64,000 bases of DNA from contig JBDRHZ010000043.1 of the NCBI GenBank assembly GCA_043816305.1, forward strand, positions 42,322-106,321, in the 5' to 3' direction. Under the pieces are notes generated by a model. The model had not been told where the DNA came from. It worked only from the letters and a program-made list of their open reading frames with translations, and made no database searches. Position 1 is the stretch's first letter; each line of letters begins with the position of its first letter. The position numbers and the translations under genes were made by a program. Source of the stretch: Patescibacteria group bacterium. Its GTDB lineage: Bacteria; Patescibacteriota; Dojkabacteria; JAHIVN01. This document shows positions 4,183 to 62,752 of the stretch, in pieces.

Positions 4183-4286
4183 AATCTCAAAGTGCCTAAG
4201 CTCAAAAGCCCATCTGCTCATCCACTCACTGGCTCATCTGCTCCCATCGTGATATCATATACAGAACTTAACTTTGAATTATAACC

Positions 4287-5465: not shown

Positions 5466-5482
5466 AATCTAGCTCTTCCCAA

Positions 5483-29992: not shown

Positions 29993-31897
29993 ATGAAAAG
30001 TAGAAAGACATTTTTCAGGGGACTGATAACTATCTGTATCCTAACTACGATAGGCCTTTCTGTGTATTATCTCACTAGCAGGAATACGTTTGACCTTAGA
30101 GGAAGAGCTGAGTCAACAGAAGCTGAAGTGACAATCTCTCCTTCAGAAGAAAACTTCCCAGTTGAGACTTTTAAAAATTATGGTGTGAATATTTTCACTA
30201 CGAGGTATGAGATGCTTTTTGAAGCGGGTGCTGAAAGCGAGTATGCGGATTTTCTTGCTATTTATAAGGATTTCGACTTCAAGACTCTACGATTTCCAAA
30301 TGGCTGTCACATCGCTTGGTACAACTGGAAAGATCCAGATAGTTCAACAAATCCGGCTCCAACTGTCGAGCAAGTCCTGCAGTTCGCTAAAGATTCGGAT
30401 AGCGAGCTGATATTTGAGATGTCAACTTTAGGATTCCTAGATTCTGCTATTCGCGATCATAAGTACACGAATCCCTGCGGAAATGAGATAGAATTTCGCT
30501 GGTCTGAGAATGATATCCGCTGGTTTGTTCAGGAGTACACTGTGAAACGTAAAGCTGCAGGTGAGAATTACATCGAGTATTATGAACTTGGTAATGAAGA
30601 ATGGGGCTACTATAACCATGACCTACAGCGGATGCTTACTCCAGCAGAATATGTTAATGCAGCTAAGGCTGTTTCTCAGATTATAAAGCAAGAAGCTCCC
30701 TATGTAGAGATCATCGGAGTCAGTACTTGGCAGGACAGTGCAGTGTGGGGAGCGCAAGAGTATATCAATAATCCCTCATTCTTCGATAATGTAACACTCC
30801 ATACCTATTGGCATGATGCTTGGTTGGGTGAGCCTCCAGAAGGGGAAAGCTTGTTTTCGATTGATTGGCATATCAAGCCGATTTTGGATGCTTACCAACA
30901 GGTGTTTGCTGGTGTGGAGAAGTTTCAGAGGCCTGCATATACAGAATGGAATCTTTTCTGCTGGCCAGAGGGAAATAGCGGAAGACCTCATAAAAATACT
31001 ATGAAATTTGAGCATACTCTCTATATTCTTGAGCATATGCTTGTACAGTCTGAGTACAATATCAAAATGACAAATTATCATGAATTCCATCCACTTGCGG
31101 ACAATGTACAGAACTACGGAGGCTGCAATCTAGTTTTTAAAGATGGGGAGGAGTATGGGCTCTCGGCGGCCGGTATCGGGTTATATACTTATTCACAGCA
31201 CTATGCCATTGAGCATGTAAAGACAGTTGTTGACTCGCCGATTTATTCTTACGAACCATACGGATATGGTGAGGATTTTAGGTTTCAGTCCTTGTTTGCT
31301 TCGTCTGCAAAATCAGATGACAAAGTTCATTCTATAATTATAAATCGTAATCCTGAAAAAGATATGGAAACTACGATTAATCTTGCTGATTTCTCAGATG
31401 AAGTGAAGTATGATTTATATTTACTTCACGCACCGGCATTAAGTAGTGATAAAGAAGAAATTAAACTAGATCAAATGGAAAAAGGAAAAGTTGTCGATAG
31501 TACCTTTGTAATTGACATTCCGAAGTACAGTGCAGTGATTCTCGAGATCACAAAGGAAGAATGTGTGTCTGATTGTTCAAGCAAAGTCTGCGGAGATGAC
31601 AATGGCTGCGGGGGTAAATGTACCGGCTGTCCAAAGGGAGAAATATGTAATGAGAAAAGCTGGAAATGTGAGAAGACCGTGCCTTCGAATAGCTGTTCAG
31701 TTGCAGATATCAATGGCAAAGAGAATAGTCCAGATGGTGAAGTGAATGCATATGATCTGTCTATGGTTCTCTCAAACTGGAAGTGTACGACAGGACCAAA
31801 TTGTGGAAAAGCAGATATTTGGGGGAGGGATGATAAAAAAGATGGTCAGGTTGGACCGTTTGATCTGTCGAGGGTACTGAGCTGTTGGAAGAAATAA
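29993..31897 (+). CDS. secreted clan GH-A (GH51-like) glycoside-hydrolase-like protein with Cys-rich linker and dockerin-like C-terminal repeats
   Basis: Signal anchor LITICILTTIGLSVYYL. YYELGNEEWG is a GNE acid/base motif and AYTEWNLFCW is a (D/T)EWN nucleophile motif. Linker CGDDNGCGGKCTGCPKGEIC. Two Ca-loop-like repeats: DINGKENSPDGEVNAYDLSMVLSNW and DIWGRDDKKDGQVGPFDLSRVLSCW. Confidence 0.7.
   Translation: MKSRKTFFRGLITICILTTIGLSVYYLTSRNTFDLRGRAESTEAEVTISPSEENFPVETFKNYGVNIFTTRYEMLFEAGAESEYADFLAIYKDFDFKTLRFPNGCHIAWYNWKDPDSSTNPAPTVEQVLQFAKDSDSELIFEMSTLGFLDSAIRDHKYTNPCGNEIEFRWSENDIRWFVQEYTVKRKAAGENYIEYYELGNEEWGYYNHDLQRMLTPAEYVNAAKAVSQIIKQEAPYVEIIGVSTWQDSAVWGAQEYINNPSFFDNVTLHTYWHDAWLGEPPEGESLFSIDWHIKPILDAYQQVFAGVEKFQRPAYTEWNLFCWPEGNSGRPHKNTMKFEHTLYILEHMLVQSEYNIKMTNYHEFHPLADNVQNYGGCNLVFKDGEEYGLSAAGIGLYTYSQHYAIEHVKTVVDSPIYSYEPYGYGEDFRFQSLFASSAKSDDKVHSIIINRNPEKDMETTINLADFSDEVKYDLYLLHAPALSSDKEEIKLDQMEKGKVVDSTFVIDIPKYSAVILEITKEECVSDCSSKVCGDDNGCGGKCTGCPKGEICNEKSWKCEKTVPSNSCSVADINGKENSPDGEVNAYDLSMVLSNWKCTTGPNCGKADIWGRDDKKDGQVGPFDLSRVLSCWKK
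31731..31824 (+). repeat. 94-nt tract identical to 33743-33836
   Basis: Base-by-base comparison of the two paralog 3' regions. The flanks diverge immediately on both sides. Confidence 0.9.
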
Positions 31898-31926
31898 ATA
31901 TAAGGTATAGTTGTAATGAAAACTTT

Positions 31927-33909
31927 ATGAAGAAATTAAGCAAGGGGTTATTTTTGATATTTTTAATGCTAGCTATAGCAGGAGCTGTATATATTATTAG
32001 AAGAGAGGATTCTTTAGATATCAGGGAAAAGGCAGCAGGTTTTGATGCGACGGTAATAGTTCATTCTGGTTCGGTAGGTCATGACATAAAATATGGAGCA
32101 CATTTAAATGTCCATTCCGACTCCAGTCAATTTACGGTAATAAGCGATAAAAATTCAGATAAACATAAAAGTTTTGTTGAAAATTTCAAAAAGTTGGGGT
32201 TCAGTTACCACAGGATAGGTTTTAATGTAGCAGAATATGACTGGACTACAGAAAAAAATAGAGATGCGATATACGACGTCCTCGACTTTTCTGATGAAGT
32301 TGACTCAGATCCAATTTTTCTCATGTCAGTCGCGGGGATAATTGATCCTGCCAGGGAACATAAGTACATGAATCCTGTTGGTGATGAAGTTACTGTCAGG
32401 TTTCCTATTGGCGACTTGGATGATCCAGCTGTCTATGGGATAAAGGATTTTGTGAAAGAATTTACCCTGGATCGTAAGAATGCCGGTAAGAAATATATTA
32501 AATACTATGAACTCGGGAATGAGGAATGGGGCTGGTGGGATGAAACTGAGCAGAGATTTCTAACTCCTCAAGAATATATAGCAGCAGCTGATCAGGTATC
32601 AGCTGCAATTGAAGAGGTGATACAGAATGACGCAACGCTAAAGAGTGAAGTAAATGTACTGGGAGTAAGTTCTAGAGTCTTGGCTGAGGGTTATGGTGGA
32701 GCGGCTGTTCCCTATGGCGATGGTGATTTTGTCATCTGGGGGGCAAAGGAGTACGAAACGAGCCAGAATTTTTATGATTATGTAACATATCATGGGTACT
32801 GGCATGACAGGTGGGCTGCAGACATGCCTGAAGGAGAAAGTTTATTTGCCCTGGATTTTCATACTGCAGTGGATTTTGTTATGTACCAGGACTTTTTTCC
32901 TGCTGTAATTAAATTCCAGAGGCCCGCTGTTACCGAATGGAATCTTTACTGTTGGACAAATCCTAATGCCGGAAGACGTCATCGAAACGCTCAAAAATTC
33001 GAGCATTTGTTTTACGTACTTGGAAATCAGCTCAAGCAATTCGAATATGATGTTCCTTTTAGTATATATCATAACTATGTTCCTCCGACCTATACGCTGT
33101 CAGAACAAACAAATACTGAAAGAGGCGGGTGTAATCTGCTTCACCTTATAGAGCAGAATGGGAGCGAGTACGGAATAAGTGCACCCGGGGTGGCGTTTGA
33201 AATTCTTAAAGATCATTTTGGTGAATCATATGTGAAAACTGAGATCTCTTCGCCGAAAATATCGCTGGATCAATATAGTGGGGTCAGCGGGGAGTATGAT
33301 TCTATTATAGGAGGTTCCTCGGTCAAGGATAAAAAAATATATACAGTTCTGATTAACAGAGATTGGGATGAAGATCTGACAACAAAGATATCTCTAGAGG
33401 GATATAGCGGAGATGTTAATTACAGCATGTATCTTCTAGACGCTCCGGCTCTAAATAGTTCTTTAGATGACATATCGTTTGTTCCAACTGTCCAGAATAA
33501 GATTACTGCAAATGGTTTTGACGTTGTAATACCAAGTATGAGTTCTGTGGTACTTGAGATCACAAAGAAAGAATGTATTCCCACTTGTTCAGGGAAACTA
33601 TGTGGTGAAAATAACGGCTGTGGAGGGAAGTGTACAAACTGCCCGGAAGGGAAGTACTGCGATACTGGAGACTGGCTGTGCAAGGAGACCAGTCCATCAA
33701 GGGGTTGTTCTATTGCGGATATAAATGGAAAGTCAGATAGTTCAGATGGTGAAGTGAATGCATATGATCTGTCTATGGTTCTCTCAAACTGGAAGTGTAC
33801 GACAGGACCAAATTGTGGAAAAGCAGATATTTGGGGCAAGGACGATAAGAAGGACGGTGAGGTTGGACCATTTGATTTATCTAGAGTGTTGAGCTGTTGG
33901 AAGAAATAG
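31927..33909 (+). CDS. paralog of 29993..31897: GH-A-like domain plus Cys-rich linker plus dockerin-like repeats
   Basis: YYELGNEEWG, AVTEWNLYCW, CGENNGCGGKCTNCPEGKYC, and the same dockerin-like tail. Start set at ATG 31927 (MKKLSKGLFLIFLMLAIAG) rather than the overlapping 31885. Confidence 0.7.
   Translation: MKKLSKGLFLIFLMLAIAGAVYIIRREDSLDIREKAAGFDATVIVHSGSVGHDIKYGAHLNVHSDSSQFTVISDKNSDKHKSFVENFKKLGFSYHRIGFNVAEYDWTTEKNRDAIYDVLDFSDEVDSDPIFLMSVAGIIDPAREHKYMNPVGDEVTVRFPIGDLDDPAVYGIKDFVKEFTLDRKNAGKKYIKYYELGNEEWGWWDETEQRFLTPQEYIAAADQVSAAIEEVIQNDATLKSEVNVLGVSSRVLAEGYGGAAVPYGDGDFVIWGAKEYETSQNFYDYVTYHGYWHDRWAADMPEGESLFALDFHTAVDFVMYQDFFPAVIKFQRPAVTEWNLYCWTNPNAGRRHRNAQKFEHLFYVLGNQLKQFEYDVPFSIYHNYVPPTYTLSEQTNTERGGCNLLHLIEQNGSEYGISAPGVAFEILKDHFGESYVKTEISSPKISLDQYSGVSGEYDSIIGGSSVKDKKIYTVLINRDWDEDLTTKISLEGYSGDVNYSMYLLDAPALNSSLDDISFVPTVQNKITANGFDVVIPSMSSVVLEITKKECIPTCSGKLCGENNGCGGKCTNCPEGKYCDTGDWLCKETSPSRGCSIADINGKSDSSDGEVNAYDLSMVLSNWKCTTGPNCGKADIWGKDDKKDGEVGPFDLSRVLSCWKK
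33743..33836 (+). repeat. 94-nt tract identical to 31731-31824
   Basis: See the partner repeat. Confidence 0.9.
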
Positions 33910-35867: not shown

Positions 35868-36041
35868 AAGATATTTGTGAGTGACGGATAGCAAATAGCA
35901 TACAGTATACAGACTACCTTTCTGCAGGCTCAATGCAGGCGGGTTACGGTGTACCCTTCGACTATGCTCCCATGGTCTGACGACCAGGACAGGCAGGGCA
36001 AGCAGTTTACAGTTCTACCCTTTTCCGATATAGTATTCACT

Positions 36042-38171
36042 ATGAAAGACATAAGATCGCTGTTGTATCCAAAATCGATAGCTATAGTTGGAGCATCCCG
36101 AGACAGGGGCAAGCTTGGCCGGATTATTCTTGATAACGTAACGAAAAACGGATTTACAGGTGATATTTACCCGGTGAATCCAAAAGCCAAGAAAATTAAG
36201 AATATTGTCTGTTATCCAGATATCAAGTCTATAAAAAAGCCAATTGATCTGGCCATCATCGCAATACCTTCGACATTTGTATTTGATACAGTCAAAGATT
36301 TAACTCCAAATGAGGTAAAAAATGTAGTTGTTATCTCAGCCGGCTATTCGGAAATAGGACAAGATGGCATGATGGCCGAATTAAAACTCGGAGCGGTTCT
36401 GGAGAAAAATGGAATTAACCTCTTGGGTCCTAATTGTCTTGGGCTTATCTCCAGCGGAGTAAATCTGAATGCAACGTTTGCTAAGAACAATGTAAAGCAA
36501 GGGAATGTTGCATTTTTGTCTCAATCTGGAGCTTTGGGATCTGCGGCGCTTAGCTGGGCTGAGGAGACTGGTGTCGGTTTTTCCCATTTCGTCTCCATTG
36601 GCAATAAGGCCGATCTAGCAGAGAATGATTTTGTAGAATTCTTCACTTTGGACGAATCGGTGAAGGCAATATTTATGTATCTGGAGGATTTTGTAGACGG
36701 TAGAGAGCTTATGAAACTCGGACAGAAGACGAGAAAGCCAATAGTGGTCATGAAGCCTGGTGTATCAGAAGAAGCACAGAAAGCACTCGGTTCGCATACA
36801 GGATCTTTGGCACAGGATGATCTGATTGTCTCTGCGGCTATGAGACAGGGGGGAATAATTCGGGTTGATACCATAGAGAATATGCTGAGTTTGATGCAGA
36901 TGTTTTCCTTTCCGAAGCAGTTAAAAGGTCCCAATGTTGCCATTGTAACAAACGCAGGAGGACCAGGAGTAATTACTACAGATGCTATAGTTCAGGCAGG
37001 ACTCAATGTCGCCAAAATCAGTCAAAAGACCCAGCAAGCCCTGGCTATGAACCTTCCCTCATCCGCTAGTGTAAAAAATCCTATAGATGTTTTGGGAGAT
37101 GCAAGGGCAGATAGATATGAGATAGTCCTGCAAAAAGTCTTGACAGATCCGGGGGTGGATTGTGTTTTAACTCTTCTCACGACTCAGGTAATGACCGAAG
37201 TAGAAGAAACTGCCAAAGTAATAGTAAAAGCTGCTAAAACAAGCGGTAAATTCATTGTTCCTGTTTTTATAGGTGGGAAAGGTCTTGATAAGGGACTCGG
37301 GGTATTTCGTGATAATAATATGTCATTTTTCAGGTATCCCAATGATGCTATTGACGTTTTAGCCTATTTTTATGAGCATTCAAGAGAAGGGAAGAGGGAA
37401 CAACACAAACTTAGAGCAATTCTGAGTACGAACAAGGAGAAGTTCTCTAAGATGATGGAGAAAAGCTATGAGGTTTCGGACTTAGTAGATGTTGAAAGGT
37501 TATTGAAAGAATATAAGATACCTTCACTCGAATCCTACTTTGCTCAAGATATAGCAGGGGCAAGAAAGAGTGCAGAGGCCTTGGGATATCCTCTTGTAAT
37601 GAAGTTGATTCACCCTGAACTTTTGCATAAAACGGACGTAAATGCTGTCAGGCTAAACATCCGTAGTGAAAATGAACTGGAAGAGGCTCTAGTATCGTTA
37701 GAAAAATTAGGCACGAAACTAGAACTGACAAATTATAAACTGCAAGTACAGCATTTTGTCAAAGGTGCTGTTGAGCTTATCGTTGGTGTCAAAAGAGATG
37801 ACGCACAATTTACAGAAATTGGAGGGGAGAGAATCCTGCGCAAACATGGCTTTGGACACACTCTGCTTTTTGGGATGGGCGGCATATATACTGAGATTTA
37901 CAAAGACGTAGCTCTTCGAATCATTCCTCTAATGGAGCGCGATGTTTCAGGAATTATCAGAGAAACTAAAATCAGTGAGGTTCTCAAAGGTGCGAGAGGG
38001 CAGAACTACGACTTGAAGGAGGTAAAAAGAGTCATTCGTAACATAAATCAGCTGATATTGGACTTTCCTCAGATATCAGAACTTGATATAAACCCGCTTT
38101 TTGTGAAAGAGAACGGAGTTTGGGCTGTAGACGTGAAAATGGTTGTGAAAAGGTATACTCCTAGTGAGTAG
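36042..38171 (+). CDS. ADP-forming acetyl-CoA synthetase / NDP-forming acyl-CoA synthetase (fused alpha-beta)
   Basis: SIAIVGASRDRGKLG (CoA-binding), GPNCLG, FLSQSGALG, VSIGNKADL, and a C-terminal ATP-grasp (LGYPLVMKLIHPELLHKTDVNAVRLNI). Start at ATG 36042. Confidence 0.85.
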   Translation: MKDIRSLLYPKSIAIVGASRDRGKLGRIILDNVTKNGFTGDIYPVNPKAKKIKNIVCYPDIKSIKKPIDLAIIAIPSTFVFDTVKDLTPNEVKNVVVISAGYSEIGQDGMMAELKLGAVLEKNGINLLGPNCLGLISSGVNLNATFAKNNVKQGNVAFLSQSGALGSAALSWAEETGVGFSHFVSIGNKADLAENDFVEFFTLDESVKAIFMYLEDFVDGRELMKLGQKTRKPIVVMKPGVSEEAQKALGSHTGSLAQDDLIVSAAMRQGGIIRVDTIENMLSLMQMFSFPKQLKGPNVAIVTNAGGPGVITTDAIVQAGLNVAKISQKTQQALAMNLPSSASVKNPIDVLGDARADRYEIVLQKVLTDPGVDCVLTLLTTQVMTEVEETAKVIVKAAKTSGKFIVPVFIGGKGLDKGLGVFRDNNMSFFRYPNDAIDVLAYFYEHSREGKREQHKLRAILSTNKEKFSKMMEKSYEVSDLVDVERLLKEYKIPSLESYFAQDIAGARKSAEALGYPLVMKLIHPELLHKTDVNAVRLNIRSENELEEALVSLEKLGTKLELTNYKLQVQHFVKGAVELIVGVKRDDAQFTEIGGERILRKHGFGHTLLFGMGGIYTEIYKDVALRIIPLMERDVSGIIRETKISEVLKGARGQNYDLKEVKRVIRNINQLILDFPQISELDINPLFVKENGVWAVDVKMVVKRYTPSE

Positions 38172-38347
38172 AATGTAAGAATCATGTAACCAGTTTTCTA
38201 TAGAAATCAATTTTTCCACCAGGTAGCTATTGTCATTCAATCTTTAAACTTAAGAACAAAGAGCGAAAGCTGTTGTTGTAAAAGTTATGATTAGGGGGTT
38301 ATTGTTTGTAATTATTAGCTTCTCAATTCAATAAGGTTTTTTCCTGT

Positions 38348-38785
38348 TTAAACGATTTCAAGTGCGGTCTCTATGATAGCATTCACTCCTTTCCGTACGT
38401 AATTGCCGCCCTTGAACCCAGCGAGTTTGTTTCTGAGAGCTGAGGTCAAAAGCCTCGTGACAAGTGATATATCTTCTTCTGGGCACATGATGATGAGCTT
38501 CTTGCTTCCAACGGACAGGATTTCTGCAGATATTTCGCCGAGAACCTCTTTGAAGAATTTTTTCTTGTATTCTTCCCGAACCCTTTGTTTATCCGATATC
38601 CCTCCACCAGATGTGCCTCTGAAATAGCCGGCCTTGTCATCCCAGACTGGAAGTTTTGCCTGAAGTTTTCTTTCTTTGATTGCTCTTCCTGAGATTTGTA
38701 GGCATTTGGCGTGCTTTTCATCAAGGATAAGTATGCAGAATTTGTCCAGGACTTTTTTTGCCTGGGAGATATTTAGCTGGGCCAT
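38348..38785 (-). CDS. hypothetical protein, possibly eRF1-like / host-attachment (baeRF) family
   Basis: Overall pattern (LILDEKHAKCLQI..., KKLIIMCPEEDISLVTRLLTSALRNKLAGF) resembles that family. This is a weak by-eye call. Start at ATG rc 38783-38785. Confidence 0.35.
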   Translation of the reverse strand: MAQLNISQAKKVLDKFCILILDEKHAKCLQISGRAIKERKLQAKLPVWDDKAGYFRGTSGGGISDKQRVREEYKKKFFKEVLGEISAEILSVGSKKLIIMCPEEDISLVTRLLTSALRNKLAGFKGGNYVRKGVNAIIETALEIV

Positions 38786-38958
38786 GTAGAATGGGTGAAA
38801 AGTTATGTAGAAATAGTTTAACATAAGTAGGGAAGGATTTGAATTGTTTATTTGCGATATTGTTATATTGTTGGAAATGCAGGCTTGTAGTAGAGTCTGG
38901 TTTCAACTGGATGATTCTGCACTGATATATAGTCAGCTATAATTATCAGCACTGACAG

Positions 38959-39048: not shown

Positions 39049-39336
39049 ATGGACAGCGAACCTACGAGAGTACCTCGAACAGTTAATGTAGTATTGTCGG
39101 AAGGTACTTCTCTATTTCCTCTGGTTCCAGTGGCAGGAACCGGAGATTGGGACGAAACTATATCTGTTATCGGCTGGGGAGGGGATAGGCTTATTTTAGG
39201 AGGGAATGGCTCTGGTCCTGTTCCCTTTTTTTCAGGCAAGTATATGTTTGTTCAGGAAATTCTTTCTGGGATTGTTGTGAGAGTACTTCATGGTGATGTT
39301 TATTATGTTGTTCCACAAGGCTCTGTACAGTTCTGA
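39049..39336 (+). CDS. hypothetical 95-aa protein (atypical-composition ORFan 1 of 3)
   Basis: ATG start. Gly/Val/Pro-rich with 1 Lys (hand count). Looks beta-rich. Confidence 0.5.
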   Translation: MDSEPTRVPRTVNVVLSEGTSLFPLVPVAGTGDWDETISVIGWGGDRLILGGNGSGPVPFFSGKYMFVQEILSGIVVRVLHGDVYYVVPQGSVQF

Positions 39337-39358
39337 CTTGAGGTTTTGTATAGATTGC

Positions 39359-39367
39359 TGATATAAT
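39359..39367 (+). promoter_or_regulatory. perfect extended -10 element TGATATAAT
   Basis: TGn-TATAAT lies 30 nt upstream of ATG 39397. Confidence 0.4.
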
Positions 39368-39396
39368 CAGGGTTATCTGCCATATTTAGTAAAATA

Positions 39397-39744
39397 ATGG
39401 AGCTACTACATCGATTTACCAGCTGGATGTGTGAAACGAGAGATACGGCAAAGTCTGAGCAAGTATTTGATCAATTCATATCCAGAAGAGATCCTGCAAC
39501 GAGAAGACGGCTAGAGACAATACTAGTAAGAACTATCCTAGGTTCTAAAGTAGTAGGATTGGAAATAATAGCCCTAAGTTCTTATTCTATATTAGGGTTA
39601 GGCCTTACGATTGGTATTTGGGAATGGTCGAATGGAGAAGAAGTCAAGTTTTTAATCCGGCAAAGACTTAGAGATGTAGAATTGGTGATGAAATTGAAGG
39701 GAGTAGAAGCGGTAAGGGCTTTGTTTATGGGAAATCAAAGGTAG
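39397..39744 (+). CDS. hypothetical 115-aa protein with central hydrophobic segment(s) (ORFan 2 of 3)
   Basis: VVGLEIIALSSYSILGLGLTIGIWEW suggests one or two TM helices. The flanks are Arg-rich. Confidence 0.5.
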   Translation: MELLHRFTSWMCETRDTAKSEQVFDQFISRRDPATRRRLETILVRTILGSKVVGLEIIALSSYSILGLGLTIGIWEWSNGEEVKFLIRQRLRDVELVMKLKGVEAVRALFMGNQR

Positions 39745-39777
39745 ATAATTCAGAAACATTAGTGCATAGATTAAGCC

Positions 39778-40332
39778 ATGGAAATCGAAGCTATACATAC
39801 AGTTCTCGAGTTTGACTATATCCCATCGCAGCAAGTTTCGGCTTTAATACCTGATAAAGCAGGTCCCATCCAAGCAAGAACCGGAAATTTCCGTGCCGGT
39901 CCATTTACAGTAGATTTCATTAGAGGAGCTAAGCTTGAAGTAGTGGGGCTTTTGCATTTCAAACTTGATGCTTCACGTTTAAACTATGGTTTTCTTGTTC
40001 GAGATATGGATAGTGCTGGGGAAAGATTGTATTGGCTTTCGAGCAAAGCTCTGTCTTTGGACCAGCTTTATGAAATAGGCGGAGTGCAGGCATTTGACTT
40101 TCGGAGAGATAATGGTGAGCGTTTTCGGGTAGTGGTAAATATAACTGGAGAGAAAGTTGTTGTTAGGCTGGATGAGGTAGGGGAGTATCCTTATCCGGCA
40201 GGCTTTGTCGGCGCAACTGGATTTGAAAAGACGGTAGTTAGCCCAGAAAATATTCGTGATCTTATACACGCTATAGGGTTCTTTATCGAGAGTAATTTTG
40301 ATGTTGCAACCATAAGAGCAGCATTTAGGTAG
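39778..40332 (+). CDS. hypothetical 184-aa protein (ORFan 3 of 3)
   Basis: ATG start. Looks beta-rich. No motif recognised. Confidence 0.55.
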   Translation: MEIEAIHTVLEFDYIPSQQVSALIPDKAGPIQARTGNFRAGPFTVDFIRGAKLEVVGLLHFKLDASRLNYGFLVRDMDSAGERLYWLSSKALSLDQLYEIGGVQAFDFRRDNGERFRVVVNITGEKVVVRLDEVGEYPYPAGFVGATGFEKTVVSPENIRDLIHAIGFFIESNFDVATIRAAFR

Positions 40333-40350
40333 GGAACAGATTAACTATAA

Positions 40351-40383
40351 TTACTCAAACTCCCTGATCATCTAAATTATAGA
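40351..40383. repeat. left copy of 33-nt direct repeat TTACTCAAACTCCCTGATCATCT(A/G)AATTATAGA
   Basis: 32/33 identical to 43053-43085, 2,702 bp away, in the same orientation. Confidence 0.9.
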
Positions 40384-40420
40384 ACATCACTTCCCTTATT
40401 TAACAAGTTCTTTTTTTACT
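40351..40420 (-). pseudogene. decayed duplicate of the last ~70 nt of the oxidoreductase beta-subunit gene
   Basis: The rc reads PVKKELVK*GK*CSII*MIREFE*, against the genuine gene end KKTLVEEVKEYSIIQMIREFE* at 43053-43120. The first 33 nt are 32/33 identical; the remainder is roughly 65% identical by hand alignment. Confidence 0.7.
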
Positions 40421-40462
40421 GGAGAAGTCTGGTTGGGTGACGAATGTTTAATTAAATTGCGA

Positions 40463-41749
40463 TTATTTGATTAGGTTTATATTATTGCTAATAAGTTCAA
40501 GATTAATGTCTGCTCCCATAGCAAGTACATTGCACCTTTCCTTAACAAGTATTTCTCTAGCTATGGTTGCCAGCTCTGTTTGCTTTATATTCTTTTGGAT
40601 GAAGTCGCTCGAAATATTTTCCTCATTGAGTTCTGTACCATAAAATGCTGCTTCGGCTAGAAGTTGAGAGTAGGGTAGGTTTTTCAAATGTACTATATCA
40701 TTAAGTGTTTTTTTTCGAGCTAGTAGAAATAACTTCTCGTCAGTTCCAATTGTTGAAATAATTGAAAAAAACTCTTTTAGTGTTGTGTCGATCAAAATGG
40801 GGTTTATCGGGAGCAGAACTTTGATCCAAGTATGATCAAGCAGTTTGTGCAGGTGTACAAAGTGATTGTATACAGAACCAAGTTTTTTGGTAAGCTGTTG
40901 ATGAATCAGTACTTGTAAATAATTGATTAATGTTCTTAGTTTCAGAATATTCTCAAAAGAGTATTCTATATAAAATGGAAAACCAACAAGGAGATAGTCC
41001 AGTTGTAAGTGTAGTGTCTTCTCTACCCAGACATGCGAATGAAAGTTTTTATGGCTGATAACTTCCGAGTCTTGTTCTTCCAGAGGCCGATCTTCTATTG
41101 ATCCAAGCTGACTCACTCTAGGGGTTGCTATGTTTTTGTTGATATATTCGGCTACCCCTCCAGAATCTAAGTTTCCCACGACCGCTATATATAGAGGATG
41201 TCTCAGAATTCTATCTCTGAAAGATAATATTTGACTTGCCGAAAGTTTAGAGACAGTTTGATAGGTACCTATTGTCGGGTACTTGAATCCTGAGCTCGAA
41301 TTCTGCCAGATTCTCTCGTTGAACAGATCTTGTATATGTATATCAGGGAAGTCTTTCCTTTGACGAATTTCAGTTCTAACTATATTTTTCGTCCGTTCGA
41401 GAATGGCGTTATCAATATTTATTTCAGATAAGATCAAAGAAATTACCTTTATAGCTTGCTCGATGTATCTATGAATGCAGGAGACTGTAATAAGTATGTA
41501 TTCATAAGTTGTTTTAGCGTAAATATGGATGTTATACCTATGTAGTAACTCACCGTATTTCTCGACTGGTTGATTATTTTGTGGACTAAAGTAGAGGAGA
41601 TGCTCAATAAGGTGGCTGATGCCTGCATTTGCGGAGTTTTCATAACGGTTTCCTGCAGGAATAACGAGAGTGATACTTGAAAATTCTTCTTGGGTAGATT
41701 TTTTATGAAATAGTTTTGAGCCATCTGGAAAGTTGTGCGATTTGATCAT
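40463..41749 (-). CDS. M16-family (pitrilysin/insulinase-like) zinc peptidase
   Basis: GISHLIEHLLYF carries the inverted zinc motif HxxEH. Length 428 aa. Confidence 0.8.
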   Translation of the reverse strand: MIKSHNFPDGSKLFHKKSTQEEFSSITLVIPAGNRYENSANAGISHLIEHLLYFSPQNNQPVEKYGELLHRYNIHIYAKTTYEYILITVSCIHRYIEQAIKVISLILSEINIDNAILERTKNIVRTEIRQRKDFPDIHIQDLFNERIWQNSSSGFKYPTIGTYQTVSKLSASQILSFRDRILRHPLYIAVVGNLDSGGVAEYINKNIATPRVSQLGSIEDRPLEEQDSEVISHKNFHSHVWVEKTLHLQLDYLLVGFPFYIEYSFENILKLRTLINYLQVLIHQQLTKKLGSVYNHFVHLHKLLDHTWIKVLLPINPILIDTTLKEFFSIISTIGTDEKLFLLARKKTLNDIVHLKNLPYSQLLAEAAFYGTELNEENISSDFIQKNIKQTELATIAREILVKERCNVLAMGADINLELISNNINLIK

Positions 41750-41788
41750 TTTACAAAGACACGAATTTGAACTATTATAAATAATACA

Positions 41789-42091
41789 ATGAATTCAGAA
41801 GAAATAAAAATTAAAATCAAAGAACGATTTCCAGGAGTTTACGAAGGAAGGAATCTAGAGGTATTGATGAGAGAGGTCGAGATGCTTACCCCAGTGATTA
41901 AAAATGGATTGGTAGAATTTCTCGAAAGTGAAGTTGTACCTGATATTGAAGTGGAGGGCTACAGTCTTGAGAAGTTAGTTTCTGAACATCAAATGAATGT
42001 ATTGGCTGCCTTTCTGACGCTAGATTGGTTAAGGAAAGAACCGGAAGAAGCCAAAAAGTCGTTGTTGAGGGGACATGATGCTATTGTCTAA
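41789..42091 (+). CDS. hypothetical 100-aa acidic protein (possible immunity-type protein)
   Basis: Host-like, Lys/Glu-rich composition. First gene of a three-gene small-protein array that contains a SUKH protein. Confidence 0.45.
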   Translation: MNSEEIKIKIKERFPGVYEGRNLEVLMREVEMLTPVIKNGLVEFLESEVVPDIEVEGYSLEKLVSEHQMNVLAAFLTLDWLRKEPEEAKKSLLRGHDAIV

Positions 42092-42137
42092 TATTGTATT
42101 TTGCTGACTTTATCTAACTTTTTACATATTTATACAT

Positions 42138-42578
42138 ATGTGGGATAGAATATTAGGTACACTTTCAGAAAAATTTGAAGTAAAAAAATTCGATGGTGCC
42201 GGAGAAAAGGATATAAATGTTCTTGAGGATAAGCTTGGTGTGAAACTTCCTGAAGAACTTAGAGAACTGTTGAAGAATACAGATGGGTTGGAAGTAGAGA
42301 AGACAAGGATAATCCGGCCGGTCAAAGATATATTAGAAGATAATGAACGATTCCGATCGGACGAAAATATTCTTAGAAGCTTTATGCCTTTTGACAGTCT
42401 GCTGTTCTTTGGGGATTCGGGTGGAGCAGGGGATCTGTTAGCCTATGCTATTATTCAAGGGGAGATCAGTAAAACAGGTGTATATGTCTGGGATCATGAA
42501 AATGACAGCAGAACTTGGATAGCGCCTTCAATTCAAAAGCTTTTAGAGTGGTGGATAGATGGGAAAATAAAGGTTTAA
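42138..42578 (+). CDS. SMI1/KNR4 (SUKH-1) family protein, typical polymorphic-toxin immunity fold
   Basis: INVLEDKLGVKLPEELRELLKNTDGLE, LLFFGDSGGAGDLLAY, GVYVWDHEND, SIQKLLEWW. Confidence 0.75.
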   Translation: MWDRILGTLSEKFEVKKFDGAGEKDINVLEDKLGVKLPEELRELLKNTDGLEVEKTRIIRPVKDILEDNERFRSDENILRSFMPFDSLLFFGDSGGAGDLLAYAIIQGEISKTGVYVWDHENDSRTWIAPSIQKLLEWWIDGKIKV

Positions 42579-42608
42579 TGTGTCTATTTTAATTTATTTA
42601 AAATAAAG

Positions 42609-43043
42609 ATGGCCAACTACAGTGTAGAAGATCTTATCGTGAAAGGTTGTACTATAAAAAGCCGAGAGGTAGATGGTAAGGTGTTGTGGACTCTGAAATT
42701 TGAATTTGAAGAGTTCCAGCAGAAAGAAGAGGATGGGGGAAATAAAACTCCTGTTTCATTGGGATTTAGCGACTTTGATTTGGGAATTGAAAGAATTGAA
42801 GATTTAGACGGATTTACAACGGAACTCAGAGAAAAGTTTCATGATGGAGGAGATGGATCGCTATATTTGTTTGAACACAACCCTCTAAACTGGATGAAGC
42901 TGAAGTTTACAAAGGCAGGAGAGAATAGGTATTCGGTTGAATGCGAGTGTTCAGTTGAATTTTCAGGATTTACCGGAGAAGGTGATCAGGACAAGGATTT
43001 TCGATTAAGTTTTACAACTATAGCTGATCATGAGGCGAGATAG
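42609..43043 (+). CDS. hypothetical 144-aa acidic protein (possible immunity-type protein)
   Basis: Small, acidic and probably beta-rich. It follows the SUKH gene. No motif recognised. Confidence 0.45.
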   Translation: MANYSVEDLIVKGCTIKSREVDGKVLWTLKFEFEEFQQKEEDGGNKTPVSLGFSDFDLGIERIEDLDGFTTELREKFHDGGDGSLYLFEHNPLNWMKLKFTKAGENRYSVECECSVEFSGFTGEGDQDKDFRLSFTTIADHEAR

Positions 43044-43052
43044 TAGCAAGGA

Positions 43053-43085
43053 TTACTCAAACTCCCTGATCATCTGAATTATAGA
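43053..43085. repeat. right copy of the 33-nt direct repeat (this is the true 3' end of the beta-subunit gene)
   Basis: See 40351-40383. Confidence 0.9.
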
Positions 43086-43919
43086 GTATTCTTTTACTTC
43101 TTCAACCAAGGTCTTCTTTTCACCTTTTCTTTGAACCAGTCTCTGGGAGTAGGGGATACTCTTTTTATCCTGGTAGATTATTCCTGTGGCGATCTTCTTT
43201 TCAACATCACTTGCTGTTTCAAAAGCTCTTTTCCAGTCTGAAGCGTCATAGTTCTTCCTTTCGGCTAAGTCAAACACTCTTTCCTGGAACCACTGGAATG
43301 TATTCAGCTTGTTAAATGTGATGCAGGGCTGTAAAAATTCTACAAAAGAGAATCCTTTGTGTTCCACAGCACTTTTCATTACTTTTACCATTTGTTTTGG
43401 ATTTCCTGCAAAAGTTTTAGCTACGAAAGAAGCGTTTGAGATCAGTGCCAGTTGTGCAGGGACAATGTTATTCTCAACTATTCCTAAGGGAGCCGTTTTT
43501 CCGGGGTTTCCTTCTTCTGTAGTTACTGTCGGCTGGCCGGTTGTCAGACCAAATGTTTGGTTATTATGCATTAGTACTGTAATGTTGTAATTGCTCCTTG
43601 CAGCCCACATCAGGTGATTTACTCCTTCCTCCATAACGCCACCATCTCCGCCGATCGCGATGACTGTCAGTTCAGGGTTTGCTATCTTGATTCCCATTGC
43701 AGCAGCTACAGTTCGACCGTGAAGTGATTTGAAGCCGTAAGTGTTGACCTTGTCAGCCATATTGCCGCTGCAGCCTATGTCGTAAGTCAGAACTGTATTA
43801 TACGGTTCGAGTTCCATCTCCGAAAGTGCCTGTTTTAGACTGTTCCAGATGCCATAGTTCCCGCATCCTGGACACCAGGTTGGGGTTACTGTTGTGTTGA
43901 AGTCCTCGAGTTGTGCCAT
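43053..43919 (-). CDS. 2-oxoacid:ferredoxin oxidoreductase beta subunit (TPP-binding)
   Basis: TWCPGCGNYGI, IGGDGG (TPP motif GDG), CITFN. Confidence 0.9.
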   Translation of the reverse strand: MAQLEDFNTTVTPTWCPGCGNYGIWNSLKQALSEMELEPYNTVLTYDIGCSGNMADKVNTYGFKSLHGRTVAAAMGIKIANPELTVIAIGGDGGVMEEGVNHLMWAARSNYNITVLMHNNQTFGLTTGQPTVTTEEGNPGKTAPLGIVENNIVPAQLALISNASFVAKTFAGNPKQMVKVMKSAVEHKGFSFVEFLQPCITFNKLNTFQWFQERVFDLAERKNYDASDWKRAFETASDVEKKIATGIIYQDKKSIPYSQRLVQRKGEKKTLVEEVKEYSIIQMIREFE

Positions 43920-43975: not shown

Positions 43976-45703
43976 CTAAATTTTTGTTTTTAAAATCTCT
44001 ACCAGCTCGTCCTTAAAAAATGGTGTTCCAACGTATTTTGTTATTCTTGTCTTTATATCAATCCCTGTTTCACACCTGATAAGCTTGGCGAACTGGCCTG
44101 AATAATTATTTTCAACTGCAATCAGCTTGTTTCTTTTTGCATATCTTTTTATGGTTTCTATTTCAATCGGATAAACGAAAGAGTAGTGCAATGCATTTAT
44201 ACGGCTTTTTCCGTTATTTAGCTTCTCAAGTGCGTCAATAATTGGTCCCTTTTGTGACCCCCAGCAGATAATAGTTGTTTTTGCCTTTTCCGGTCCATAA
44301 AGCTTAGGTTCTGGAAGTTCAGAAATTATTCCTCCGTATTTCCTCATTCTCTTGTCCATCATCTGTTTTCGTGCATAAAGATCTTCTGTAGAATAGCCTT
44401 TTTCATCATGTTCGTCGCTGTTTGCGAGATATACCCCTCCCTTTGATCCGGGAAGTGACCTTGGGGAAACTCCTGAAACCGTAATTTTATAGCGTTTGAA
44501 CTCGAGCTGATTAGCGAGATCAGGTTCAGAGAGTATCTGTCCTCGGCTTACCTTGATTTTTCCATCTTTAAATCGCTTTGCTTGGTACCAGCTTTCAGAC
44601 AGGTATTTATCAAGGAGTATGATCACAAGTGTTTGATATTTATCAGCCAGATTAAATGCTTGTGGAACAAGCTCAAATACCTCATTGATATCTCCAGGAG
44701 CAAGTACGATCTTGGGAAATTCCCCATGTCCTGCTCGTGATACAAACTCGAGATCTCCTTGTTCCGTCCAGGTAGGCAGTCCCGTTGCCGGTGCAGGTCT
44801 CTGTGAGTTGAAAACTACGAGTGGTGTCTCATTGATACCTATTAATGAGAGACTTTCTGTCATGAGAGCCAATCCACCACCCGAAGTCCCGCAGGCAGAA
44901 CGTGTTCCTGCAAAACTGGCACCTATAGCCATTTGGATGGCAGTGATCTCATCTTCGGCCTGTTTCACGATCATCTTTGTCTTATCAGTTCTACTTGCAA
45001 GGTATTGCAGAATTCCAGTTGAAGGGGTCATCGGATATGCACAGTAAAGTCTGCAGCCAGAGGCATAAGTGGCGAGTCCGGCTACTTCATTTCCAGTTCC
45101 TATTATCCTATCGGTGGAGCCTTTTAGCTGTTTCAATTCAACGAAGTACTGATCAGCAACGACTTTAAATCCATCTTTCGCGCATTTTATATTTGTTTCT
45201 ATATCCTTGGATTTCTTGCCGAAGATTTGTTTCAGTTGGTTTTCGAGAACTTTGAATTCTTTTGTCAGCATGCTCCAGACTGCTCCGGTGATGACAGAGT
45301 TTTCCATTACTGGTTGTCCGTTATTCTCTTTTACGATTTCATCAACTGGGATGACAAGGATCTGTATACCCTTGTTATCGAGAGATTTCTTTACTCTTGG
45401 CTTGATAACTCTATTATCATCGCAGATCAGAAGTCCTTTTCGGTTCAGATCCTCATGGTGCTTCTCAATAGTCTCATCGTTCAATGCAACTAAGATGTCA
45501 AATCTTTGCGTAATCGAGCCTATCTGCTTGTCGGCTACATTTATCTGAAATGTGGAATGACCTCCTCGAATGAGAGAAGGGTACTCGCTATAGGAAAATG
45601 TCCAGTAGCCCAGATCCTTGAGTGCCTTTGTGAGTATGTAGCCGGAGGTTTTTACTCCTTGTCCGGCGCTCCCGCCAATTTTTATCGAAAAAGTCTGTTT
45701 CAT
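43976..45703 (-). CDS. 2-oxoacid:ferredoxin oxidoreductase alpha subunit with fused N-terminal gamma domain
   Basis: IKIGGSAGQGVKTSG (gamma domain), then GNEVAGLATYASGCRLYCAYPMTPST (alpha domain). Start at ATG rc 45701-45703. Confidence 0.85.
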   Translation of the reverse strand: MKQTFSIKIGGSAGQGVKTSGYILTKALKDLGYWTFSYSEYPSLIRGGHSTFQINVADKQIGSITQRFDILVALNDETIEKHHEDLNRKGLLICDDNRVIKPRVKKSLDNKGIQILVIPVDEIVKENNGQPVMENSVITGAVWSMLTKEFKVLENQLKQIFGKKSKDIETNIKCAKDGFKVVADQYFVELKQLKGSTDRIIGTGNEVAGLATYASGCRLYCAYPMTPSTGILQYLASRTDKTKMIVKQAEDEITAIQMAIGASFAGTRSACGTSGGGLALMTESLSLIGINETPLVVFNSQRPAPATGLPTWTEQGDLEFVSRAGHGEFPKIVLAPGDINEVFELVPQAFNLADKYQTLVIILLDKYLSESWYQAKRFKDGKIKVSRGQILSEPDLANQLEFKRYKITVSGVSPRSLPGSKGGVYLANSDEHDEKGYSTEDLYARKQMMDKRMRKYGGIISELPEPKLYGPEKAKTTIICWGSQKGPIIDALEKLNNGKSRINALHYSFVYPIEIETIKRYAKRNKLIAVENNYSGQFAKLIRCETGIDIKTRITKYVGTPFFKDELVEILKTKI

Positions 45704-45768
45704 AGGCAGTTTGAAAGATGATGAGTAAAGGATATTACAAAGCGTAGAGAAGGTCAAGAAAAAAGAAG

Positions 45769-46444: not shown

Positions 46445-47419
46445 TTAAAAGAGAAGATGTCCTAATCTTTCCAATGCAGTTACTTTGAATACTCTGAGGT
46501 CTGGTGTAAGGGTTTCCTCGGCAAGGACGGTTTGTACAATATGTTGAAGAGCTGCAGGATGACATCTCCTAAGCTCACGGAGAAGAGATTCTGCTTGAGA
46601 ACCCCCAGGGTCTGATGACAGCATTGTGTTGAGAAGTCTTCTTTGGGCATCGACATCATCGGGTGTTCCAAATATTGCAATTTTTATCTCGGTCGTTCCT
46701 CCTACTTTGAGTACATCATCAAGTTCGTATAGTACTGTTGGAGGAACTTCTGTTGTTGCAGGAGGAGTAGACCTTGTTGTTACAACCCTTTGTCGGGGAA
46801 TTTGCTGTCCTGCTGCAATTAAAGCTGCTGATCTCATTGCAAGTACATTTGCCTGAGCATTTTTTATAACTCCAGGAAGATCTAGTTGGATAAGAAGCTC
46901 AATTACAGAAGGTATAGAGTTATCAGCGCAGTACCTTTCAACAACAAGAGCAAGATCTGGTAAATTTAAGGCTTGAAGATTGTCACGAACAGATCCGTTT
47001 TCGGTTGGCTGTGAGAAAATTTGGGTTCGTATTCTGGAAATGAGTGCTAGTTTATCATGAAAAGTAATAAAACTACCTTCTACATAATCATATACGACAG
47101 TTCTAGCTCGTAGCCTTGCATCTGGAATCATACCTTGGATAACTTCTGTAAATCTTCTAGCTGAATATGTGGTGTCTTCAAATTTCCCCGTTTTCAGAAA
47201 TAACTTAACGAGCCCTTCTCCTTGTTCGACTTTATGTTTTCTATCTATCTCGGCTGCTGTTTGTCTGGCAAAGTGTTCTTGAAGTTCCCGTTGTCTAAAC
47301 GAGGGACCGTTTACCGATCTGTTCACAGCCTTTCTTGCCTGAGCTGCATCTAGCTTTGAAGTGTCTTGATCTGTGATAGCGTTATCACCACGTTGTCTTA
47401 GGGATTCATGAATTGACAT
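46445..47419 (-). CDS. hypothetical 324-aa protein (atypical-composition ORFan)
   Basis: Long clean ORF. Arg/Ala/Leu/Thr-rich and looks helical. No motif recognised. Confidence 0.6.
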   Translation of the reverse strand: MSIHESLRQRGDNAITDQDTSKLDAAQARKAVNRSVNGPSFRQRELQEHFARQTAAEIDRKHKVEQGEGLVKLFLKTGKFEDTTYSARRFTEVIQGMIPDARLRARTVVYDYVEGSFITFHDKLALISRIRTQIFSQPTENGSVRDNLQALNLPDLALVVERYCADNSIPSVIELLIQLDLPGVIKNAQANVLAMRSAALIAAGQQIPRQRVVTTRSTPPATTEVPPTVLYELDDVLKVGGTTEIKIAIFGTPDDVDAQRRLLNTMLSSDPGGSQAESLLRELRRCHPAALQHIVQTVLAEETLTPDLRVFKVTALERLGHLLF

Positions 47420-59659: not shown

Positions 59660-59668
59660 TGGTATAAT
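59660..59668 (+). promoter_or_regulatory. extended -10 element TGGTATAAT upstream of ORF 59731
   Basis: TGn-TATAAT lies 63 nt upstream of the ATG. The identical 9-mer recurs at 63918-63926. Confidence 0.4.
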
Positions 59669-59730
59669 TGTTACTGAAAATATTGTATCATATTCGTGAT
59701 TTAATATTTAATATAGTCATAACGGTGGAA

Positions 59731-61110: not shown

Positions 61111-61165
61111 TTAGCATTAAGCCGATGTCCAATGTATATATACTTGGGCCAACATTAGTATAAAT

Positions 61166-62131: not shown

Positions 62132-62137
62132 GGTATT

Positions 62138-62752
62138 TTACACTCTCTCTGCTATGTGCCGTAATCCCTCGAGCGTTCTCCAGACAGTATCTTGTTCTCT
62201 GCCGTAAAGATTCGCAGCTATAGTTGATATTCTTCTCTGATTTAATCCGGGCAATTGTTGCCTAACCTGGTCAACCGCAGAGAGAAACTGATAAATTGTT
62301 GAATGCCGATGGAGTATTGCCTGTGTTATTGAACCTGTAACATTGGGATTTTCTGAACTGATGAGGAGATTTAACAGAGGTAAATTCTTTGTTATTTCAA
62401 CTATCTTTGAAGTACTCCCGATTGATCGATAATAGGGATTTCCGTCTTGTAATTGATCCGGCCTTGCAACTAACTTCAATATCATATGCGCTGCTGCTGT
62501 ATAAGCACTTTCATCTTGCAGGACTTTGATCGCTGCACGGATTACTTCTGTGGAGAGAGCATCTGCTGAGAAAACTGGAGCTAACATACCTACACTAATA
62601 GTATTTACTCCATCTTCGAGTCGTGCTAAACAGCTCATTAGAGCTCTTTCCTGGGGAGATAGGTTTTCAGGGTTAAGCCTATTTGAAGCCCTTTTTTCAC
62701 GATCTACAACTCTTCCTTTTCTTGCAAGGACTTCCCAGAGTTCTTCAGTCAT
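62138..62752 (-). CDS. hypothetical 204-aa helical protein (atypical-composition ORFan), 10 nt downstream of the YhaM-like gene
   Basis: ATG rc 62750-62752. The stop of the upstream gene is at 62763-62765. Convergent with 61166..62131, with a 6-nt gap. Confidence 0.55.
   Translation of the reverse strand: MTEELWEVLARKGRVVDREKRASNRLNPENLSPQERALMSCLARLEDGVNTISVGMLAPVFSADALSTEVIRAAIKVLQDESAYTAAAHMILKLVARPDQLQDGNPYYRSIGSTSKIVEITKNLPLLNLLISSENPNVTGSITQAILHRHSTIYQFLSAVDQVRQQLPGLNQRRISTIAANLYGREQDTVWRTLEGLRHIAERV

Follow-up and report, generated by a model that had tools for sequence, protein, structure and literature searches.

Direct repeats at the 3' end of an oxidoreductase gene in a Candidatus Dojkabacteria genome suggest a scar of recombination at a hot spot of gene gain

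Introduction

At Rhs and contact-dependent inhibition (CDI) loci and in type VI secretion system (T6SS) arrays of Vibrio cholerae, a conserved gene serves as an anchor at whose 3' end new DNA is added, while the old 3' end is moved downstream as an orphan fragment and older material lies further from the anchor. These arrays have no integrase and carry immunity-type cargo. Homology-facilitated illegitimate recombination (HFIR), or end displacement, has been proposed for Rhs C-terminal displacement and the orphan immunity arrays at the V. cholerae T6SS (Kirchberger et al. 2017, PMC5361080, citing Jackson 2009, de Vries & Wackernagel 2002 and Prudhomme 2002). Here we describe a locus with the same features, SUKH immunity-type cargo included, in a 64-kb stretch of DNA (contig JBDRHZ010000043.1; hereafter the window) from Candidatus Dojkabacteria (Patescibacteria, candidate phyla radiation, CPR). 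In the window, the 3' end of the gene encoding the beta subunit of a 2-oxoacid:ferredoxin oxidoreductase (hereafter beta) occurs twice, on either side of a 2.7-kb cassette.

Two further systems bear comparison. Like the cis-mobilizable elements (CIMEs), integrative and conjugative elements (ICEs) as well as integrative and mobilizable elements (IMEs) found at fda, rpsI and rpmG in streptococci (PMC7563491), with cargo of ~1-13 kb devoid of recombination or transfer genes, the locus has direct repeats that take in a conserved gene's 3' end and leave this gene intact. As in integron arrays, additions are made at one fixed end beside a conserved site, the newest nearest to it, and many of the genes are orphans. 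The locus also departs from all three. Unlike in Rhs, CDI and T6SS arrays, the anchor is a subunit of a housekeeping metabolic enzyme and not a polymorphic toxin, the displaced piece is 33-69 nt long and probably functionless, the cargo consists of a peptidase and small orphans instead of effector-immunity pairs, and the host is a CPR bacterium. In contrast to CIMEs, no cognate ICE, IME or integrase is known or was found, the repeats are without recombinase-core architecture, the scars nearby have boundaries of their own and one involves another gene, and no functional element has accreted in tandem. Unlike integrons, the locus has neither an IntI gene nor attC-like imperfect palindromes, gene orientations are mixed, and there is at most one repeat pair per locus. 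By analogy, the process is akin to end displacement at toxin loci and, more remotely, to CIMEs; judged by the features that define them, the locus does not pass as an integron, a transposon, an integrase-bearing island or a polymorphic toxin locus.

CPR genomes are small and have few recognisable mobile elements and many lineage-specific orphan genes. To our knowledge, gene acquisition by these genomes is poorly documented. The locus provides a concrete, dated footprint of it, comprising a conserved operon as anchor, a junction that is empty or variously filled, and three independent scars of displaced gene ends. It reveals no new kind of mobile element; its bearing is on how CPR genomes acquire orphan genes.

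Results

A pattern search with TTACTCAAACTCCCTGATCATCTRAATTATAGA matched twice in the window, at 40351-40383 and 43053-43085, both on the plus strand. The 33-mer reads TTACTCAAACTCCCTGATCATCT(A/G)AATTATAGA, and the two copies are identical at 32 of 33 positions, the A/G exchange being the single difference. None of 100 dinucleotide-preserving shuffles matched the pattern. The only other long direct repeat in the 64 kb is one of 237 nt within two paralogous genes. The right copy (43053-43085, minus strand) forms the functional last 10 codons (SIIQMIREFE) and the TAA stop codon of beta, whose product of 288 aa (43053-43919, minus strand; Pfam TPP_enzyme_C and PFO_beta_C) ends ...YSIIQMIREFE* (asterisks denote stops). 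The left copy (40351-40383, minus strand) is intergenic and constitutes a pseudo-3' end of beta, reading SII*MIREFE* with an internal stop; it lies in the 130-nt gap that separates the convergent stops of a 184-aa gene (40332) and an M16 peptidase gene (40463). Both copies lie 9-18 nt past the stop of a convergent plus-strand gene, and their downstream flanks display no clear similarity. A 28.9-kb NCBI contig covers both repeats and contigs of two more assemblies cover one repeat each. Since these contigs all match the window at 100% identity, assembly error is not the cause of the repeat.

Beyond the left 33-mer, a weakly homologous continuation of the pseudo-end (40384-40419, minus strand) reads KKELVK*GK*C, giving KKELVK*GK*CSII*MIREFE* as the complete minus-strand reading. 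Ungapped, 19 of 36 bases match, compared to 34% expected from composition (p = 0.017). A gapped alignment anchored at the repeat edge scored 10, compared to ~1.0-1.7 for shuffles and random minus-strand coding windows (p ~0.002). A shuffle test with free end gaps was not significant. Of two profiles of beta 3' ends, one aligned with 54 nt of the left copy and the other, larger one with only the 33-mer region. Taken from these alignments, true homology over ~20-36 nt beyond the left 33-mer appears moderately supported. The step in identity is sharp, with 1 mismatch in 33 positions within the 33-mer and 17 in 36 within the extension (Fisher p = 2e-5). The left pseudo-end carries the lineage-specific ending II.MIREFE and not the family consensus IK(G/E)(F/L)I(E/K)EFE. 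A first-pass annotation of the DNA had already reported the repeat pair in its position and orientation and had taken the right copy for the genuine end of beta, in agreement with our results. It had also described about 40 nt of decayed coding sequence next to the left copy; this is upheld by the anchored and ungapped comparisons but not by the free-end-gap test, and the profiles disagree on it.

The segment between the repeats (40384-43052, 2,669 nt) carries four genes. The M16 (insulinase-family) metallopeptidase gene (40463-41749, minus strand) encodes 428 aa with a Peptidase_M16 domain (E = 1e-18) and an intact HLIEH zinc motif. The protein is nearly an orphan, as its best homologs are at most 30% identical across less than half of its length, and an exact-protein look-up gave no match. 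In two other assemblies of this population (ERZ27247128, SRR6514274), contigs end within this gene (window 41336-41417), possibly due to low coverage or a population variant. Divergent from the M16 gene and separated from it by 39 nt is a plus-strand trio. Its first gene encodes an all-helical orphan of 100 aa (41789-42091), followed by a SUKH (SMI1/KNR4) immunity-type protein of 146 aa (42138-42578; E = 1e-20) and an orphan of 144 aa (42609-43043), which is predicted with low confidence to be mostly beta-strand and whose stop lies 9 nt from that of the convergent beta gene. Single-sequence AlphaFold models of the 144-aa and 100-aa proteins (pLDDT 53 and 60) were too poor for fold searches.

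Along its entire length, the SUKH protein shares 44% identity with SMI1/KNR4 proteins encoded on megaplasmids of the Bacillus cereus group. There, a fragment of an HNH/EndoVII nuclease and another SMI1/KNR4 gene lie next to the genes, a neighbourhood typical of a toxin-immunity context. The SUKH domain gave a weak PADLOC match, the sole match to a defence family among the cassette proteins. No relatives of the 100-aa or 144-aa protein were found in the plasmid collection, and no match to the M16 or 144-aa protein among viral contigs. The cassette DNA itself matched nothing elsewhere in the collections searched, viral and plasmid collections included. The GC content of the cassette is 0.365, compared to 0.393 for the window, which places it in the lowest 4% of same-size windows, and its tetranucleotide distance is average for the window. 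Since the tetranucleotide profile is typical despite the slightly low GC content, composition is not diagnostic of a foreign origin.

Scans against Pfam, NCBIfam and PADLOC detected no integrase, transposase or recombinase domain in the four cassette proteins, and the cassette contains no plasmid-like or replicative gene. An integrase, transposase or other recombinase was equally absent from 29 other open reading frames (ORFs) of the window that were scanned, a few more ORFs being judged by eye only, and no toxin domain occurred among the window ORFs scanned. The 33-mer cores have no dyad symmetry, and terminal inverted repeats of the cassette scored no better than those of shuffles (p = 0.13-0.99). 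Neither the window, nor the relatives, nor the viral and plasmid collections yielded a related integrative element. At the repeats, we detected no hairpin or terminator, folding z-scores were near 0 on both strands, and there was no Rfam match. By its gene content, the cassette looks like accessory cargo (a peptidase, an immunity-type SUKH protein and two orphans) and not like mobility machinery.

Exact look-ups of the beta and 184-aa proteins led to contigs of three other assemblies, all of them 100% identical to the window. These assemblies thus add no independent information, and the collections hold no independent conspecific. The nearest other genome, L003, is at 80-84% identity (the range for beta and alpha), and the next ones at 71% or less in beta. 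Scans of genomes and metagenomes with beta yielded two useful relatives, L003 and L004, and distant homologs at 38-43% identity. We compared the locus in 11 further lineages and the window, 12 in total. The order of the backbone is PrmC ... alpha, beta, then the junction, then YibE_F, in some cases a baeRF-family gene, ADP-forming acetyl-CoA synthetase (ACS) and NUDIX/TrmD. The alpha-beta pair is conserved in 12 of 12 lineages, and the DNA directly after beta is different in each. The split of the L003 beta gene (5336-6201) into two ORFs, seen as a tblastn match in two pieces, is probably a frameshift error and not a pseudogene; this metagenome-assembled genome has ~3x coverage.

In four lineages the junction is empty and beta is followed by YibE_F after gaps of 49 nt (L012), 178 nt (L020-22), 0 nt (L024) and 6 nt (L025). 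In the remaining eight (the window and L003, L004, L014, L015, L017, L019 and L023) it is filled. The filled junctions of the relatives contain 1-5 ORFs, mostly convergent with beta, that extend up to YibE_F or the contig end, and the only Pfam families among them are a DUF5122 propeller (L003) and an alpha/beta-hydrolase (L023). In the variable region of L019, an 84-nt repeat (10681-10764 and 11584-11667, 71% identity) with a TTGACA…TATAAT-like promoter precedes two adjacent small orphan genes. Between lineages, homology of junction ORFs was detected for a single pair, the 95-aa gene of the window (39049-39336) and a 93-aa gene that adjoins YibE_F in L003 (54% identity, E = 7e-30). By these comparisons, genes have been gained repeatedly at the junction after beta, and beta|YibE_F is a defined site at which gene gain can be followed in population metagenomes.

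Relative to the related genomes, the cassette is an insertion. Its genes are absent from the loci of all 11 relatives, none of which has a second beta gene at the locus, and the left copy is not conserved in them. Going away from beta, the order in the window is cassette, pseudo-end, 184-aa gene, 115-aa gene, 95-aa gene, baeRF and ACS, and YibE_F, the ancestral neighbour, is absent from the 64 kb. The pseudo-end marks a boundary between older and newer DNA, since the 95-aa gene is common to L003 while the cassette genes occur in no relative. The 184-aa gene is an orphan, and pairwise comparison with the genes at the same position in L003 and L004 yielded nothing convincing (best E-value 0.03). 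An empty site in which this gene abuts beta was not found, the other assemblies of the organism being identical to the window.

Each locus was searched for copies of its own beta 3' end, and a general repeat scan of the loci followed. The search for beta ends gave one further match, in L017, whose beta is 66% identical to that of the window. Here a 31-nt block (30/31) at beta positions -47 to -17 recurs 722 nt downstream; the beta end at 8821-8867 and the pseudo-end at 9541-9588 share the last 16 codons including the stop codon. The tail of the pseudo-end has diverged and has suffered a 1-nt deletion (GTGAGGG-GTTTGAGTAA versus GTTAAAGAATTTGAGTAG), and similarity resumes in the 3' flank, where 19 of 30 bases match, including an in-register 12-mer. 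The pair brackets a single 154-aa orphan gene and its upstream region, with a convergent 304-aa gene next to it. Profiles of beta 3' ends, built from 8 and then from 12 lineages, matched outside real genes only the pseudo-ends of the window and L017.

The repeat scan revealed a direct repeat of ~69 nt (80% identity) in L023, at 2941-3009 and 4184-4253, which brackets the alpha/beta-hydrolase gene right after beta. The repeat copies not beta but the last 17 codons and ~12 nt of 3' flank of a convergent 113-aa gene; the real end of this gene reads …FLDGGSNKKWPITIINE* and the pseudo-copy …FLDGGSTKRLPIIIVSE. At another locus, in L015, a direct repeat of ~350 nt (14487-14838 and 16422-16774, 99% identity) comprises the first 300 nt of trmD and ~50 nt upstream. 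It brackets an HTH/CYTH gene and a 202-aa gene and leaves a truncated trmD copy of 108 aa, which looks like a recent 5'-end counterpart of the gene-end scars. The boundaries of the duplicated segments vary, from -33 to 0 in the window and from -47 to ~+27 in L017, with another gene affected in L023. In L017 and L023, the duplicated unit extends beyond the stop codon into the flank, and the decay of the pseudo-ends is plain to see from an indel, the loss of stops and an identity of 80%. Judged from these alignments, partial duplications of flanking genes around inserted DNA recur in the clade and are not bound to one sequence.

Discussion

We read the repeat pair as the scar of a cassette insertion by 3'-end displacement at a recombination hot spot, anchored by homology in the manner of HFIR, and hold this reading with about even confidence. 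As its core, sequence comparison supports the view that the segment between the repeats was inserted at the beta 3' end and that the left copy is the displaced, dead end of the gene. The first-pass annotation had proposed an integrated element that displaced the gene end. The insertion and the displaced dead end stand, given that beta abuts YibE_F in four lineages, that the cassette genes are absent from relatives and that the pseudo-end lies at the boundary of older and newer DNA. A discrete element with a 33-nt att core is not supported: no recombinase was found in the cassette or the 29 other scanned ORFs, dyad symmetry and terminal inverted repeats are lacking, the cassette occurs nowhere else in the collections searched, and the scars in L017 and L023 are different. 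Domain scans recovered the gene content described in that annotation, an M16 gene on the minus strand and three small plus-strand genes including SUKH, and confirmed its statement that the cassette encodes neither integrase nor transposase. In sum, the data favour a scar of recombination at a hot spot of gene gain over a discrete mobile element that has an att core, although a recombinase may have acted in trans. Such a footprint is of a known kind; its setting, a housekeeping oxidoreductase gene in a CPR genome, is unusual.

The topology of the locus, in the order host flank, repeat, cargo, repeat and host gene, is what a crossover or junction within a gene end produces if the incoming DNA brings a copy of this end with it. 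Three processes fit: a circle may integrate site-specifically, a circle may enter by a RecA-type single crossover, or linear DNA may recombine homologously on one side and be joined illegitimately on the other (HFIR). Homology-driven events, and HFIR in particular, are favoured over a single att site because the duplicated segments differ in gene and boundaries and because no recombinase (in the cassette and the 29 other scanned ORFs), dyad symmetry or terminal inverted repeats were found. Three hallmarks of displacement by HFIR are present: a conserved anchor lies beside a variable region, a partial anchor 3' end occurs past the added genes (40351-40419 in the window, 9541-9588 in L017 and the pseudo-end of the 113-aa gene in L023), and the position of the junction varies.

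As for the course of events, the ancestral order in Dojkabacteria would be beta followed directly by YibE_F, the baeRF-family gene and ACS. Lineage-specific genes would have piled up just past the beta stop, the newest being the 2.67-kb block in which the M16 gene diverges from the 100-aa, SUKH and 144-aa genes. The incoming DNA would have borne a beta 3' end and then the cassette. Its beta-like part may have paired with the resident beta, the homologous anchor, and its far end would then have been joined illegitimately ~33 nt, possibly up to ~69 nt, ahead of the resident stop codon. As a result, the resident beta would now end in the imported copy (43053-43085), and its former end would have moved 2.7 kb downstream as the dead fragment (40351-40383) beside the older 184-aa gene. 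Such HFIR, or 'C-terminal displacement', would not need an integrase. While the repeat, the insertion relative to the related genomes, the recurrence of such scars at the junction and the lack of recombinase signatures are shown by the sequences, we infer the mechanism, in what order the events took place, which of the two copies came first and the enzymology. The incoming DNA presumably stemmed from a related chromosome, because the duplicated units of L017 and L023 run into the 3' flank as would be expected, and the donor and recipient were probably close relatives, as the anchor requires, because the pseudo-end carries the lineage-specific II.MIREFE ending. Uptake of DNA from such a relative probably preceded recombination; Saccharibacteria, also members of the CPR, are naturally competent (PMC10633639). 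If correct, the locus suggests that integrase-free, homology-anchored capture of foreign or novel DNA shapes these genomes.

Several points weigh against displacement by HFIR. Neither a donor genome with the cassette nor a conspecific genome with an empty site was found, and direction and mechanism are read from the topology. In its simple form, HFIR would leave the duplicated segment diverged to about the same degree throughout. Should the 36-nt extension be homologous, identity of 97% followed by ~53% constitutes a mosaic, which is a better fit to a pre-diverged attP-like arm. The beta 3' end is involved in two of the three scars, whose blocks of identity overlap around TCTATAA (-33 to -17), and a recombinase directed at beta may have acted in trans. 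The analysis covers 64 kb of the genome, with domain scans of the cassette proteins and 29 other ORFs, and a recombinase may lie elsewhere. Competence is documented in Saccharibacteria and not in Dojkabacteria. Finally, integrase-less CIMEs at the 3' ends of protein-coding genes are common in streptococci (PMC7563491).

An alternative that we regard as possible but unlikely is an integrase-less site-specific element (CIME-like or a satellite). According to this explanation, the 33-mer is an att core recognised by a tyrosine or serine recombinase acting in trans or provided by a helper element, and a circular 2.7-kb element integrated at the beta 3' end and supplied a replacement end. Near-perfect direct repeats do bound the cassette, its target is the 3' end of a conserved gene, and the sharp step from 1/33 to 17/36 mismatches suits a core with a diverged attP arm. 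The L017 cassette, too, is bounded by a beta pseudo-end, with the overlapping block mentioned above, and streptococcal CIMEs of 1.2-13 kb have att sites without recombination genes at the 3' ends of fda, rpsI and rpmG (PMC7563491). On the other hand, neither the cassette nor the 29 other scanned ORFs encode a recombinase and the cores lack dyad symmetry. The identity blocks of the window and L017 occupy different positions and the L023 scar copies a different gene; the cassettes have no sequence or genes in common. The cassette was found in no other context, phage or plasmid, and this site is not known to be used by a related ICE or IME. With respect to CIMEs proper, the repeats, as candidate att sites, are present and mobility genes are absent; neither kinship nor a tandem arrangement with an ICE or IME at the same att site was observed.

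A rather improbable explanation is a Campbell-type single crossover, in which circular DNA with a beta-end homolog and the four genes entered by general homologous recombination inside the 33-nt identity. It predicts the same topology as that observed, makes a dedicated integrase unnecessary, and accounts both for an identity block flanked by diverged homology and for the differing genes and boundaries in L017, L023 and the L015 trmD case. However, it needs a circular double-stranded intermediate of unknown origin, the cassette has no plasmid-like or replicative gene, and a length of 33 nt is close to the lower limit for RecA-type recombination.

We give little weight to the more far-reaching proposition that the beta 3' end is a dedicated attI-like docking site of a Dojkabacteria cassette-capture system. 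In such a system, a recombinase in trans would repeatedly insert promoter-bearing orphan cassettes. Each insertion would leave an attC-like pseudo-beta end, in what would be an integron-like generator of lineage-specific genes in CPR genomes.

It is also most improbable that the left copy is under selection as a functional element, such as a terminator, an RNA-stability signal or a binding site for a protein or small RNA, or is held identical by gene conversion. The 33 nt are far better conserved than the adjoining 36 nt, and both copies lie 9-18 nt past a convergent plus-strand stop. The first-pass annotation had named conservation of the left copy in relatives as a functional element as the observation that would speak against insertion; the left copy was found in none of the relatives, and it gave no terminator-like or significant RNA fold on either strand and no Rfam match. 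A single mismatch in 33 nt would equally be expected of a recent event, and decay is under way in the pseudo-ends of L017 and L023. That the left copy has a function thus seems unlikely. We find it scarcely credible that a staggered break at insertion gave rise to the repeats as a long target-site duplication, or that they are what is left of a second beta paralog (a tandem duplication and subsequent deletion): direct repeats do flank unique DNA and L015 contains a partial gene duplication in the same clade, but bacterial transposition duplicates 2-14 bp and not 33-75 nt, there are neither transposase nor terminal inverted repeats, and a paralog remnant should display uniform divergence instead of 97% followed by ~53%, with no relative having two beta genes at the locus and no further beta sequence found upstream of 40420.

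A number of established classes were considered separately and rejected. A transposon, insertion sequence or dif-like architecture does not apply to a cassette without transposase and terminal inverted repeats and with a repeat of 33 nt. A terminator or structured RNA at the repeats was dismissed for want of a hairpin or Rfam match and with z-scores of ~0. For an integron, no IntI integrase was found, and neither repeat has a significant fold or dyad. For a polymorphic toxin locus, the displaced gene encodes the beta subunit of a thiamine pyrophosphate (TPP)-dependent oxidoreductase and the scanned window ORFs contain no toxin domain. As for an integrase-bearing genomic island, ICE or IME, direct repeats do overlap the 3' end of an intact target gene, the right copy completing the beta ORF, but the four cassette proteins include no recombinase of its own, and independent insertions do not share a core site, as the blocks of the window and L017 differ and that of L023 comes from another gene.

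Additional observations

The alpha subunit gene (43976-45757, minus strand; POR/POR_N) belongs to the conserved backbone upstream of beta, the proposed homology anchor. Past the pseudo-end lie the older lineage-specific genes of 95, 115 and 184 aa (39049-40332, plus strand). The conserved backbone on the far side (35949-38824) consists of the ADP-forming acetyl-CoA synthetase gene on the plus strand and the baeRF-family gene on the minus strand. The latter encodes a bacterial relative of archaeo-eukaryotic release factor 1; in the window (38348-38824) and in L004, L012 and L024 it adjoins the synthetase gene, and this arrangement is conserved in several Dojkabacteria.

The 237-nt direct repeat (31660-31896 and 33672-33908, 83% identity) represents Cys-rich C-terminal domains that are common to two tandem paralogs (29993-31897 and 31885-33909) of ~650 aa each, which have a hydrophobic start and no Pfam match. 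Orphan ORFs without Pfam match occur at 9659-11206, 39049-40332, 46445-47419 and 59668-62752 and are, by eye, rich in Arg, Ala and Gly; they may represent a clade-specific class of fast-evolving genes. The three ORFs at 39049-40332 and one at 46445-47419 have a low GC content at third codon positions (0.25-0.34) at normal to high overall GC content. Genes resembling dnaN and dnaA, as judged by eye from translations, are located at 16274-19362, ~24 kb from the cassette. If this assignment is correct, the locus lies near the replication origin and not at the terminus or dif region.

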